DNA of 64,000 nt from Nitrospiraceae bacterium. Lineage in GTDB: Bacteria; Nitrospirota; Nitrospiria; Nitrospirales; Nitrospiraceae. Shown one piece after another: positions 1 to 61,264 of the stretch. A program made the translations under genes and the position numbers. The stretch covers positions 1-64,000 of the forward strand of contig JBFWWG010000017.1 of assembly GCA_050246315.1 (NCBI GenBank), given 5' to 3'. The notes under the pieces were generated by a model. That model was not told the DNA's origin. It saw only the letters and a program-made list of their open reading frames with translations, and did not search any database. Numbering within the stretch: the stretch's first letter is position 1; each line of letters opens with the position of its first letter.

Positions 1-524
1 GAACGTCGCTTGCCGCGGCGCTGCTGGGCTGTACGCGCACGTTGTGGCCGACGGACGTGTCGGCCGGTCGTCTGCCGGAAGGCCGTCTGGCCCTCTGCCA
101 CGCGCATACGAATGAACGGCTGGAGGTCACTTACCGAAACGATTTCGGGCAGTACGATGCGTCCGCGCTTGAGGCGTTGAACAGTTTCATGCGATGCAAC
201 TACACCAACCGAACCGCGAGCATGGATCTTCGCGTGATTGAGTTCTTGAACAGTCTGCACAAACAGGTCGGAGGCGACAAGGAGATCATCGTGCAGTCGG
301 CCTACCGGTCTCCCGAATACCAGACCGTGCTGATTAAGCAACGGGGGCGACGGGTGGCCAGGCAGAGCTTTCACGTGACGGCCCAGGCCGTGGATTTTCA
401 TATTCCCGGCGTGCCGTTGCGCCAAATCCGACAAGCGGCGCTGCGATTAGGGCAAGGCGGGGTCGGATATTACCCGCGCCGCGGGTTCGTGCATATCGAT
501 TGCGGTCCCGTCCGCTGGTGGTGA
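1..524 (+). CDS. YcbK/DUF882-family peptidase M15 (peptidoglycan endopeptidase-like), 5' end outside window
   Basis: Motifs SAYRSPEY, SFHxxAxAVD and FVHIDCG; the frame stays open to the window edge (TSLAAALLGCTRTLWP...). Confidence 0.85.
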   Translation, partial: TSLAAALLGCTRTLWPTDVSAGRLPEGRLALCHAHTNERLEVTYRNDFGQYDASALEALNSFMRCNYTNRTASMDLRVIEFLNSLHKQVGGDKEIIVQSAYRSPEYQTVLIKQRGRRVARQSFHVTAQAVDFHIPGVPLRQIRQAALRLGQGGVGYYPRRGFVHIDCGPVRWW

Positions 525-58493: not shown

Positions 58494-58651
58494 AGCCCAT
58501 TTCAGCGAGACAAGGCGAATAGGCTACTGAAACGATTTCCCGGACTTCCGCCGGATATCGTCCGGGCAACGCTCCGTTCTTTGGCATTAATATCGCTGAC
58601 TCAGTAGACCAAAAGGCGTGATTCAATCGAGGAGATGAACCGGGGAACTAC

Positions 58652-58768
58652 TTAGCGGAGCTTGCGGGCTCTCTTCTGCTTCTTGGGCGCTTCCTTCTTG
58701 CCCACCTTTGGCGCGCTCAGAACCACCTTCAAAGCTTCTTTGAATTTTGTGAATGGCGATGGGTCCAT
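58652..58768 (-). CDS. IS passenger: 38-aa basic peptide (absent from the ORF track)
   Basis: MDPSPFTKFKEALKVVLSAPKVGKKEAPKKQKRARKLR; SD ggagg; upstream TTGACA-N18-TAAAAT. Confidence 0.65.
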   Translation of the reverse strand: MDPSPFTKFKEALKVVLSAPKVGKKEAPKKQKRARKLR

Positions 58769-58828
58769 TGCGTCCTCCGTCGAGGGCACCCTACCACAAA
58801 GCCATCTGGACCTCAAAAAAAGCGCGCC

Positions 58829-58858
58829 ATTTTAGCCCTCATCCTTGACGCATGTCAA
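58829..58858 (-). promoter_or_regulatory. Leftward sigma70 promoter inside the IS
   Basis: TTGACA-N18-TAAAAT; the -35 lies in the near-palindrome TTGACGCATGTCAA. Confidence 0.6.
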
Positions 58859-58902
58859 TTAAGTGGCATATGCGGCATGATGCATGGCTGCCATTTTGCT
58901 CT

Positions 58903-58931
58903 TTGACTTCGTGCCGCGATTTTAGTAACAT
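58903..58931 (+). promoter_or_regulatory. Rightward sigma70 promoter inside the IS
   Basis: TTGACT-N17-TAACAT. Confidence 0.55.
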
Positions 58932-58982
58932 CGCATATGTTGTTGCTGCCGGCCATCCGCATTCGATATGGAGGGTATCCAT

Positions 58983-59366
58983 ATGGGAACCGCGATTGAT
59001 GAGATTAGAAAGCAGATCAGTACAAAGGAAGTGGAACTCGCTCGCGTGCAGCAGGAACTGGACGTATTGCGCCGCGCACTAACCATTATGAGCGGACGGC
59101 GCATGGATGTAGCAGAAGGTGGGCCGAAAATTCCAGACCTGCTCCGTGAGGTTATGGCCGAATCCAACGGTCAAATTAGCGCCGATGAAATCGTTCTGAG
59201 GGTTAAGGCCAAAGGCAGTCAGGCAACGCGACAAACCATCCTTGGCGCAGCTTATAGATGTGCGAAAGAAGGACGTTGGATCAAGATCGTCTCAAAGGGT
59301 GTTTTCGGCACAATTGAGGAGGAGGAAGACCATCTTGTGAAGCTAAGAGCACTCTGTAGCTCATGA
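58983..59366 (+). CDS. IS passenger: coiled-coil plus winged-HTH-like protein
   Basis: SD ggagg; N-terminal heptads; ISADEIVLRV...TRQTILGAAYR...KIVSKGVF. Confidence 0.7.
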   Translation: MGTAIDEIRKQISTKEVELARVQQELDVLRRALTIMSGRRMDVAEGGPKIPDLLREVMAESNGQISADEIVLRVKAKGSQATRQTILGAAYRCAKEGRWIKIVSKGVFGTIEEEEDHLVKLRALCSS

Positions 59367-59424
59367 TGCACGAACGCCCTACCACCCACGCAAGAGGAAG
59401 TAGGGCGCTCGCTTCACCCAGTAT

Positions 59425-59521
59425 GGCCAGGCAACCCTAGCGGCAACTAGGGCGGCGGAATCGCAAACCGTTGAGCCATGTTAGCGCATGGCTTGGGGCT
59501 CAACCCCCCGCCTGGCCTCCA
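59425..59521 (+). ncRNA. Allo-tRNA-like RNA (8-bp acceptor/4-bp T-stem, long variable arm, anticodon CGC, U73, CCA)
   Basis: GGCCAGGC/GCCTGGCC-T-CCA; D stem CCCTAG/CTAGGG; anticodon arm GGCGG-AATCGCAAA-CCGTT; variable arm GAGCCATG/CATGGCTT; T arm GGGG-CTCAACC-CCCC. Confidence 0.8.
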
Positions 59522-59567
59522 TCACTACCGTAGGAGGGTAGTAATGGTGTCTCTAAAATGCATTCAC

Positions 59568-59596
59568 ACTCTACCTAGACCCCCACCAGTTGTCAA
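59568..59596 (-). promoter_or_regulatory. Antisense sigma70 promoter pointing into the tRNA-like gene
   Basis: TTGACA-N17-TAGAGT on the minus strand. Confidence 0.6.
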
Positions 59597-59725
59597 GCGA
59601 GCGAGCCCTAAGCAGAGGCGATAACTGTCTCCTGGCCGGAGAGGTGCCCCCTGCTTAGCCCTCGCTCGATCAGAGTCTACCAGAGGCAAAACTAAAATAA
59701 CTACATGCATTCGAAGGAGTTAAAC

Positions 59726-59866
59726 ATGGCAAGGAAGGATCAGACCAGTACGCTGAAGGGTCGAGATGCCCGAAGCGGTCAGTTTATCCCGGTCGAGGAA
59801 GCCAGGAAGCGGCCTAGCACGACTGTTGTTGAGCGTGTCCCGCTTCCTGGGAAGGGAGGTAAATAA
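59726..59866 (+). CDS. IS passenger: 46-aa basic protein (absent from the ORF track)
   Basis: MARKDQTSTLKGRDARSGQFIPVEEARKRPSTTVVERVPLPGKGGK; SD aaggag. Confidence 0.75.
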   Translation: MARKDQTSTLKGRDARSGQFIPVEEARKRPSTTVVERVPLPGKGGK

Positions 59867-60118
59867 TCACCGCCTTAGCACGGTGATTTTCTCAATACTG
59901 GCTGTGGGGATCGTGAGGTCCCCACAGCCTTGCAGCATGATTTCACCATTCTTCTCACCCGCCATGTGAGGCACCAAGACCTTACAGTCTTTACGATCCG
60001 CCACAAGCCAACCGACCGAACGACAATAAAGCGGTTCGGCCGCTCGCTCTATTTGCTCAGTTGTTTGCCAACCGCGCCCAGCATGGGAATCGAGCCATTC
60101 TATAAGCACCAGCTTCAT
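59867..60118 (-). CDS. IS passenger: 83-aa beta-rich hypothetical protein
   Basis: SD ggagg; LVLIEWLDS...CRSVGWLV...IPTASIEKI; directly downstream of the transposase. Confidence 0.75.
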   Translation of the reverse strand: MKLVLIEWLDSHAGRGWQTTEQIERAAEPLYCRSVGWLVADRKDCKVLVPHMAGEKNGEIMLQGCGDLTIPTASIEKITVLRR

Positions 60119-60169
60119 AGATCCTCCTATCCTCGCTTCCCTCGTTTTTGTCGCCTTCCAAAGGCCTGT

Positions 60170-61108
60170 TTATGATGGAAGGCTCGTAAGGTGCTGATAG
60201 GTGAGCCGACGCCCATGAATGGTTGAAAGGGCCTGGATAAATCGGTCTTGGTCCGTCTGCTTGCGAGCATTGAAACGGTAGGTTTGCTCATCGAGATACC
60301 GGAACAAGTGGAACGGCTCAACGCTCACATAGGTTCCCTTGATCCCGCGCTTCAGAAGGCTCCAAAAGTTCTCGATAGTGTTGGTATGCACATTCCCTTT
60401 CACGTAGGTTTCAGCATGATTAATGACGCGATGGGCATAATCCAGCCCAACCTGTTTATAGCCTGCCCACTGGTCAGTGTAGACCGTTGACCCAGATTCG
60501 ACATGGTCTCGAATGGTGCTGTTGAGCAATCGCGCGGAGGCAGTGTTTAGAACTGTTGCGCGAACCTCTCCCTTTCGCTCGATCATGCCCATCACAACGG
60601 CCTTTCGGAAGCTCCCTTCCGCCTTCACGATCTTCTTTTGTTTGTCATAGTGCATATTGCGGGCTTTCCCGCCGATATAGGTTTCATCGGCTTCCACTTC
60701 GCCAGATAGCTTGGTCTCGAAAGACTTGTTATGGAGAGCCAAGCGAAGCCGATGCAGCATGAACCAGGCAGTTTTCTGAGTCACGCCAAGGGATCGTCCC
60801 ACTTCATACGAGCTAATCCCATTCTTGCAGTTCACCAGCATCCAAAGCGCACAGAGCCACTTATCGAGCTTGATCGGACTATCCTCAAAGATAGTGCCGA
60901 CCTTCACACTGTACTGCTTCTTGCAGCCTTTGCATTCCCACAGTGAGCGAGTCTTGATGAAACGATATTCTTTTGAAGCGCAGCGCGGGCACACTGGACC
61001 GTCAGGCCAACGGAGTTGCACAACCAGATCAAGGCAGGTTTGTTGATCCGAGAAGTATTGGATGGCTTCTTGAAGAGTGTGGGGCAGTTTGTGTGAGTCC
61101 TTCATCAT
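60170..61108 (-). CDS. IS1595-family DDE transposase
   Basis: Zn ribbon CPRC...CKGC, SVKVGTIFEDS, VEADETYIGG, YTDQW, HTNTIENFWS, GRRLTY. Confidence 0.95.
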   Translation of the reverse strand: MMKDSHKLPHTLQEAIQYFSDQQTCLDLVVQLRWPDGPVCPRCASKEYRFIKTRSLWECKGCKKQYSVKVGTIFEDSPIKLDKWLCALWMLVNCKNGISSYEVGRSLGVTQKTAWFMLHRLRLALHNKSFETKLSGEVEADETYIGGKARNMHYDKQKKIVKAEGSFRKAVVMGMIERKGEVRATVLNTASARLLNSTIRDHVESGSTVYTDQWAGYKQVGLDYAHRVINHAETYVKGNVHTNTIENFWSLLKRGIKGTYVSVEPFHLFRYLDEQTYRFNARKQTDQDRFIQALSTIHGRRLTYQHLTSLPS

Positions 61109-61134
61109 CGTTCCTCCGTGGCTTGATAATGAGG

Positions 61135-61163
61135 ATTCTACACGGTTCAGCCTACTGAGTCAA
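61135..61163 (-). promoter_or_regulatory. Transposase promoter overlapping the terminal inverted repeat
   Basis: TTGACT-N17-TAGAAT; the -35 lies inside the TIR. Confidence 0.7.
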
Positions 61164-61264
61164 GTATATTAATGCCCGTTCTTTCAGGCGAGAGTTCCGT
61201 TGAAAGCTGCTATAATCCGCAGAGTCTTCCCTCGTCTCATCCGATCATCCCAAGAGTCAACTCC

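Follow-up and report, generated by a model that had tools for sequence, protein, structure and literature searches.

The 64,000-nucleotide stretch analysed here (the window; positions 1 to 64,000 of contig JBFWWG010000017.1, Nitrospiraceae bacterium, assembly GCA_050246315.1) carries a recently inserted transporter element of the insertion sequence (IS) family IS1595. Between its terminal inverted repeats (TIRs) lie a transposase gene, four small open reading frames (ORFs) named here by their lengths in amino acids (ORF38, ORF127, ORF46 and ORF83), and an irregular tRNA-like gene. This gene has a GC hairpin upstream and a promoter match downstream that points back into it, and the same combination recurs on three kinds of mobile DNA. 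We tentatively read the cargo, with a probability of about 0.35, as a switchable growth-arrest cassette in which a missense tRNA would be silenced by a cis-antisense RNA.

The tRNA-Like Gene and Its Facing Promoter

The RNA folds into a cloverleaf with a z-score of -3.25, although ARAGORN and Rfam recognized no tRNA or RNA family within the element (best Rfam E 0.58). Its stems measure 8 bp (acceptor), 6 bp (D), 6 bp (anticodon, with the 9-nt loop AAUCGCAAA), 7 bp (variable, V) and 4 bp (T), and it has U73, C54 in the T loop and an encoded CCA. The 8-bp acceptor with a 4-bp T stem, which characterizes the (8/4) allo-tRNAs, is found in the window and in the relative L223, while the relative L237 is of the 7/5 type; the long V arm and G73 or U73 of allo-tRNAs are represented by the 7-bp V stem and U73. 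Where the allo-tRNA rule is a long D stem with a tetraloop, the D stem here has 6 bp and its loop 6 nt, or else 4 nt if a mismatch is taken as the closing pair.

The anticodon is probably CGC. L237 keeps the NNUCGCAAA loop despite a different anticodon stem, and CGC is therefore favoured over GCA; the UU-CGC-AA loop of L237 is also that of the host tRNA-Ala(CGC). The pair G3:U70 is the established identity rule of tRNA-Ala, and because the RNA has no such pair its body is not tRNA-Ala-like. By Mukai's rules we infer serine identity from the long V arm and U73 together with the missing G3:U70. The host has 46 tRNAs, its own tRNA-Ala(CGC) included, so there is no decoding gap that needs to be filled.

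A DNA search of 371 genomes of the family gave one relative, L223, whose setting, read from the opposite-strand translation, is an island with a phage-type integrase beside a tRNA-His-like gene. Between the window and L223 all 61 of 61 cells stay paired in the 8/4 fold, with two two-sided changes in the D stem and a paired indel in the V arm; as covariation between two sequences only this is statistically weak, and 119 of 500 shuffles reached an equal score. An RNA model made from these two sequences found the third member, L237, in 150 genomes. It is flanked by a small ORF and an IS1-type transposase, and no TIR or target-site duplication (TSD) was found for the surrounding IS1-type element. 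It has the same anticodon loop on a different, though perfect, 6-bp stem, a YUAGCR V loop, U73 and CCA. There were no further members among 134 genomes of the genus of L237. Nineteen weaker genome matches of the model were set aside, the eight inspected being seven ordinary tRNA-Ser and one other tRNA. Phage and plasmid BLAST with the RNA region gave no match, and on viral contigs one tRNA pattern had 0 matches and another 11, none of them tRNA-like. Both L223 and L237 lack ORF46 and ORF83.

In the window, L223 and L237 alike, the GC hairpin stands upstream of the tRNA and a TTGACA...TANNNT match lies 20-75 nt downstream, pointing into it. The arrangement thus occurs on an IS1595 element, on an integrase island and beside an IS1-type transposase. 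With the motif defined as TTGACN-16..18-TANNNT within 120 nt of the tRNA, it was present in 3/3 CGC-family loci and 6/14 tRNA-like loci versus 51 of 6064 cargo windows of 120 nt (0.8%) and 0/46 host tRNAs. L109 and L102, two further IS1595 elements described below, have a facing match too. The upstream hairpin is likely a processing site or a terminator. Past the facing promoter the next minus-strand gene with a Shine-Dalgarno (SD) sequence is ORF38, 800 nt off and with a promoter match of its own. The promoter match overlaps a possible 26-aa leader ORF (Table 1). The anticodon-loop word CGCAA is repeated in the loop of the upstream hairpin in the window and in L237 (1437-1482), and not in L223.

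DNA carry-over could account for the RNA-library contigs, of depth 2-6, that cover parts of the transposase, ORF83, the leader of ORF46, the tRNA region and ORF127; stretches left uncovered are not evidence of silence. Run X18 has one 130-nt contig over the tRNA (59407-59536) at depth 130 against 4-6, the deepest of the run, and a contig of run X17, from another study, starts at 59408; both are a hint only, giving neither strand nor level, with one end formed by adapter and possibly with copies of one molecule.

Unrelated irregular tRNAs of about six types stand within 600 nt upstream of ORF46 in 9/44 loci (controls: opposite strand 0, shuffles 0.05, distant 0/29). The two-sequence RNA model recovers none of the other irregular tRNAs in 61 sources. 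L109 has in the same slot, 198 nt upstream of ORF46, a 7/5 tRNA-like gene with a variable region of ~45 nt and an encoded CCA. As IS1595 cargo upstream of ORF46, L114, L144, L178 and L098/L099 carry tRNA-like genes of ~70 nt with a degenerate D arm; the CUA-containing loops of the first three are possibly amber-type. Upstream of ORF46 in L125, and beside an IS1-type transposase, lies a long-V-arm gene of the allo-tRNA(UAU) type, and a family genome (L256:1501-1595, minus strand) has a tRNA with a UAU anticodon and a long variable arm.

The Element and Its Insertion Site

The element is 2594 bp long, with a GC content of 0.52 against 0.60 for the genome. Members of the IS1595 family have imperfect TIRs of ~25 bp and duplicate 8 bp of their target. 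Here the TIRs are complementary at 22 of 25 positions (88%), the best-scoring and second-longest of 117 long inverted pairs, and the perfect 8-bp TSD CGTTCTTT stands on both sides. The intact transposase of 312 aa has the Zn-ribbon and DDE composition of IS1595-type enzymes (NF033547, 190 bits with a cut-off of 75; PF12760 and PF12762), and as a single transposase accompanied by passenger genes inside the TIRs it makes the element a transporter IS. Each small ORF is preceded by a GGAG(G) SD sequence. Five sigma70-like sites were found in the element against 1.7±1.3 in shuffles, one of them within the right TIR. A preliminary description of this DNA had listed these ends, the transposase with its promoter in the TIR, the small ORFs, further promoters, a tRNA-like gene, hairpins and a position between divergent rlmN and slt, and every one of these was recovered in our analysis (Table 1).

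The insertion is recent and unfixed, because same-genus genomes have empty sites and because filled and empty alleles coexist. All 3/3 same-genus genomes have the flanks with a single copy of the 8-mer, and the empty junction, read from contigs, skips exactly 2602 bp, that is, the element plus one TSD. DNA run X3 has the filled contig at depth 22.6 beside an empty junction at 34.8, DNA run X7 has them at 17.2 and 34.1, and DNA run X1 has the filled form only; contig depth in these runs is not the share of cells, and the runs are possibly the window's own source. For X3 and X7 no flank substitutions are listed. The empty junction is present in RNA runs X16 and X18 too. Contigs of eight runs contain no circular-junction joint, which proves nothing. 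Together with the intact ends, the empty sites and coexisting alleles bear out the earlier claim of a recently mobile transporter IS. No second copy was found in the host genome, where the element is single-copy; two distant IS1595 transposases (37% and 28%) lie elsewhere in it. The five nearest transposase relatives come from records labelled Nitrospira.

An extended -10 match (TG-n-TATAAT) lies 5′ of slt at 61208-61216 and is kept in three sister genomes. The insertion point is ~26 nt upstream of it, and both neighbouring genes are left intact.

Table 1. Features of the IS1595 element in the window.
Feature	Position	Strand	Basis or remark
Left TSD CGTTCTTT	58575..58582	.	single copy at empty site
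Left TIR	58583..58607	.	inverted-pair search
ORF38, basic peptide, clade core gene	58652..58768	-	BLAST cluster, family hidden Markov model (HMM)
ORF38 promoter match, sigma70-like, 11/12	58829..58858	-	site search
Promoter match for ORF127 and tRNA, sigma70-like, 9/12	58903..58931	+	site search
ORF127, N-terminal coiled coil and winged helix (HARE-HTH/Rok-like)	58983..59366	+	AlphaFold2 (AF2), PF05066, Foldseek
GC hairpin upstream of tRNA	59371..59411	+	z -3.4; counterparts in L223, L237, L102
Allo-tRNA-like gene: 8/4 branch, long V arm, U73, CCA	59425..59521	+	fold, comparison
Hairpin pairing tRNA CCA end with SD/AUG of 26-codon ORF	59519..59547	+	fold; similar pairing by eye in L109
Possible 26-aa leader ORF with RPPP, low confidence	59544..59624	+	SD, ATG; RPPP(V/L)VK also in L102, L109
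Sigma70-like promoter match aimed antisense into tRNA	59568..59596	-	site search
Long hairpin, ORF46 leader	59598..59668	+	z -3.2; conserved in L102, L109
ORF46, basic small protein (GRDAxTGxFIP...VVERVPLPG), no family match	59726..59866	+	
ORF83, predicted Sm/Hfq/SH3-like barrel, uncharacterised phage-associated family	59867..60118	-	AF2, structure search
Transposase, IS1595-family DDE, 312 aa	60170..61108	-	NF033547, Pfam
Transposase promoter match, -35 within right TIR	61135..61163	-	sigma70-like site search
Right TIR	61152..61176	.	inverted-pair search
Right TSD	61177..61184	.	8-mer match

The ORF46/ORF83 Pair

In the window the stop codons of ORF46 and ORF83 abut (59866/59867). ORF83 has 196 homologs, and in the 102 loci analysed around them (80 metagenomic, 20 viral, 2 genomic) ORF46 was found in 59, or in 44 of 71 clusters after dereplication at 90% identity. 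The two genes are convergent in 58 of these 59 loci, with a stop-to-stop gap of -24 to +5 nt (median 0, n=40 measured). By tblastn ORF46 is absent from 26 of 69 clusters having enough downstream sequence. An IS1595 transposase accompanies 11 of the 102 loci, and 20 hand-picked neighbour proteins included nine IS1-transposase-like ones (all below the cut-off), one tyrosine recombinase and one terminase. The pair, which IS1595 elements, IS1-type neighbourhoods and viral contigs all contain, is a widespread, unnamed two-gene unit of ISs and phages.

ORF83 has no Pfam match. Its AF2 model (pLDDT 87) is a small beta-barrel, nearest to unnamed phage proteins (E 5.5e-5). The predicted fold aligns to several Hfq/LSm chains (Z 6-7.3, root-mean-square deviation 1.2-2.8, 46-59 residues aligned), at scores that are middling and common to other SH3-like barrels, the top match being unrelated (Z 8.4). 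Unlike Hfq/LSm barrels, ORF83 is without the N-terminal Hfq helix, and phage proteins are its closest structural kin. A 13-bp palindrome within ORF83 (59897-59931), encoding GCGDLTIPTA, lies 30 nt beyond the ORF46 stop and has one compensatory change. As a hairpin it was set aside as lineage-limited, being strong in a minority of 67 segments, with a modest excess of 7.8 versus 6.7 of 13 pairs in synonymous controls.

ORF127, ORF38 and the Variable Cargo of the Clade

PF05066 is matched by two of the six ORF127 family members, and Foldseek with the AF2 model gave weak winged-helix matches including Rok (E 0.056); ORF127 is a likely regulator. No relative was found among viral contigs; distant relatives of ORF127 and ORF46 are under-sampled. 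The homology of a 118-aa ORF of L237 to ORF127 is weak (probability 5%, E 0.007), and only the predicted layout is alike. Profile matches in 116 of 400 genomes of the phylum were rejected, since the one inspected is a distant chromosomal coiled-coil and HARE-HTH gene and not cargo. This chromosomal gene (L203:1225-1743 and 115 other genomes) is conserved in most genomes of the host's family, is distantly like ORF127 and was not found in the host genome. The element-borne ORF127 might replace it, or mimic it in other hosts.

Our sample of the clade took in 80 transposase relatives and two other loci; for 58, TIRs allowed the element to be delimited (59 with the window). The 43 relatives with an 8-9-bp TSD measure 1.8-5.2 kb (median 2.6 kb), and all 43 have cargo, so cargo is the rule in this clade. 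Many clade TSDs resemble the palindrome CTAATTAG; the five Nitrospira-labelled ones and that of the window are unlike it. Homologs of ORF38 form one BLAST cluster, a few members of it spurious, in 49 of 59 delimited elements, and an HMM built from 47 members matches 54 of the 59 in a partly circular count, the gene lying at one end or the other and on one strand or the other. Because it is present across most of the clade, ORF38 is a core gene that belongs to the vehicle and not to the variable cargo, and it is a candidate unnamed accessory gene for IS1595 transposition.

The remaining cargo varies between elements. Six representatives scanned gave RelA/SpoT, PIN, Panacea, one weak DUF3800 and two without a match. 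ORF46 and ORF83 are absent from all 58 transposase relatives, ORF127 has a homolog in one (L068), and a clear tRNA-like gene occurs in 4/59 cargoes including the window (3/58 relatives; a fifth match is probably spurious). L102 and L109 are homologs of the whole element, with transposases of 70-72% identity, the four ORFs in the same order, ~2.6 kb and a perfect 8-bp TSD each. The preliminary description had staked its view on cargo components co-occurring in other elements, and in these two they do. Its picture of one self-contained module is not supported as it stands: ORF38 goes with the clade, the tRNA cassette and ORF46/ORF83 move independently of each other on other mobile elements, and what fills the tRNA slot is not the same in the window, L102 and L109. 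L102 (2953-7766) also contains two different clade elements in tandem, with the same 8-mer between and outside them (three copies). This is a second insertion into the target duplication of the first, and the second element carries a DUF3800-like gene.

A Possible Growth-Arrest Cassette and Its Alternatives

How could such a cassette work? ORF127 may set transcription from the sense promoter, and the upstream hairpin would release the pre-tRNA. Seryl-tRNA synthetase would then charge the allo-type tRNA with serine, which would be inserted where the tRNA reads alanine GCG codons. From the facing promoter an antisense RNA of ~190 nt, ending at the upstream hairpin, would remove the tRNA; if this RNA were lost under stress or host shut-off, translation would slow. 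The Sm-like ORF83 might be an RNA-binding helper. The benefit could be stress- or phage-induced dormancy, or maintenance of the element. The RelA/SpoT, PIN, Panacea and weak DUF3800 cargo of sister elements was counted in favour of this reading. A wider version, in which IS1595, IS1-type elements and the integrase island spread an RNA-only, type VIII-like toxin-antitoxin (TA) cassette with a missense-tRNA toxin (serine at alanine GCG codons), a cis-antisense antitoxin and the winged-helix protein and Sm-like pair as optional helpers, programmed mistranslation being its selfish or defensive switch, we regard as doubtful.

Several points weigh against the growth-arrest cassette. The promoter motif was chosen after the window had been seen, L109 is a close relative, and 8/14 tRNA-like loci are without the facing motif. 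L102 keeps the hairpin and the facing promoter although it lacks an intact tRNA, and the tRNA of L109 is another one. A sense origin of the RNA of depth 130 would mean a tRNA that escapes silencing. All three RNA copies have a 31-39 mismatch, two have A32 and the window has C54, and so the RNA may not function in translation. With the host tRNA-Cys it has the first three acceptor pairs and U73 in common, and a GCA reading of the loop is possible. In the available passages of Mukai et al. 2017 (PMC5389517), 6/6 tested allo-tRNA(UAU) amber variants were inactive in a reporter. Finally, empty alleles are common beside filled ones, and there is consequently no sign of addiction. The addiction or anti-phage role proposed earlier is not supported, and the cargo proteins have no toxin or antitoxin family match in Pfam, NCBIfam and PHROGs (PADLOC lay outside the search). 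The idea of a translation-modulating module fared better: the allo-tRNA anatomy makes it plausible, though no function is shown.

Of the alternatives, the most serious, although we consider it unlikely, is a non-decoding tRNA-like RNA that serves as a decoy for tRNA-attacking nucleases, or as a 3′-maturation switch freeing the 26-codon leader and turning on ORF46. The conserved 31-39 mismatch, the variable D arm and the hairpin joining the CCA end to the leader SD/AUG would all suit it; and since that slot upstream of ORF46 is elsewhere occupied by unrelated irregular tRNAs, shape may matter more than anticodon. Such a role fits poorly with an anticodon loop kept in three copies although acceptor and D stems differ, with L223 and L237, where ORF46 and ORF83 are missing, and with the 35/44 ORF46 loci that have no tRNA-like gene upstream. 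It is also unlikely that the tRNA cassette is an independent passenger and ORF46/ORF83 the active module, either an effector with its antidote or an anti-phage pair in which overlapping antisense transcripts cross-silence the genes. Type II TA systems are co-transcribed pairs with a known toxin domain, for which a convergent layout is atypical, and ORF46/ORF83 are convergent and without a family match; the 26/69 clusters lacking ORF46 speak against this module as well, and for it stand the frequency of the pair, its almost invariable convergence at a median gap of 0, and its spread over IS1595, IS1-type neighbourhoods and viral contigs.

Fast cargo turnover, with no ORF46/ORF83, one ORF127 and three clear tRNA-like genes among 58 relatives, would be expected of a near-neutral mosaic of phage-derived cassettes in a clade that needs only ends, transposase and ORF38. 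We find this quite improbable; three elements whose transposases are 70-72% identical retain four intact, ordered ORFs in ~2.6 kb, and the RNA stems covary. Least credible of all, and very improbable, is a harmless cognate tRNA-Cys of selC* type read in the GCA register. The pairs G1-C72, G2-C71 and C3-G70 and U73 are as in the host tRNA-Cys, and U73, GCA and a long V arm also characterize selC* tRNAs (PMC5389517, available passages); but selC* tRNA-Cys has GCA or UCA in a 7-nt loop with U33. The loop here has 9 nt, and to be read as GCA it requires C33 and two additional bases on its 5′ side. L237, moreover, has a canonical UU-CGC-AA loop and no C3-G70, and the selC* rows available in the same source, all with 7-nt loops, are linked to Sec-system genomes and not to IS cargo.

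Relation to Known Systems and Significance

Transporter elements of the IS1595 family were reportedly described by Siguier, Gagnevin and Chandler in 2009. To our knowledge, no natural role of allo-tRNAs has become known since 2017. Both transporter IS1595 elements and allo-tRNAs near mobile genes are already known. The transporter IS (tIS) is defined in TnCentral (bioRxiv 10.1101/2021.05.26.445724), and our element shares with it one IS1595 transposase, TIRs, an 8-bp duplication and passenger genes. The passengers here are small uncharacterised proteins and an irregular tRNA, in contrast to resistance or metabolic genes. The accessible parts of the open literature on IS1595 tIS contain no match for a clade-wide basic peptide gene such as ORF38.

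The available passages of Mukai et al. 2017 (PMC5389517) report that serine-identity allo-tRNAs bearing non-serine anticodons cause mistranslation in E. coli and stop its growth or kill it; genes for allo-tRNAs are, according to the same passages, often neighbours of transposon and toxin-antitoxin genes. The window RNA resembles the (8/4) allo-tRNAs of that paper in its 8/4 branch, long D stem, 6-bp anticodon stem, long V arm, U73, non-serine anticodon and association with mobile and TA genes, and differs from them in the 6-nt D loop in place of a tetraloop, the 9-nt anticodon loop, C54 and the encoded CCA. The accessible part of the supplement table contains neither its 5′ end nor its D-arm words, and the available passages mention neither IS1595 nor a facing antisense promoter. 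With CreTA (PMC8501985, available passages) the candidate cassette would share a translation-disturbing RNA restrained by another RNA on selfish DNA. There, however, CreT sequesters a tRNA or blocks initiation and CreA acts via Cascade, whereas in the present case a tRNA would itself be the toxin and a cis-antisense transcript the antitoxin. In the open literature, subscription papers lying outside the search, we found nothing relevant on IS1595 with tRNA, cargo or TA, on decoy or anti-phage roles or on antisense RNA with a tRNA toxin, and no tRNA family with a CGC loop that spans three kinds of element, facing promoter or abutting ORF46/ORF83.

The element that carries this allo-tRNA is compact and intact, and one population contains cells with and without it, which provide a natural control. 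The candidate control RNA makes a prediction: if the reading is true, mutating one promoter would lead to mistranslation or arrest.

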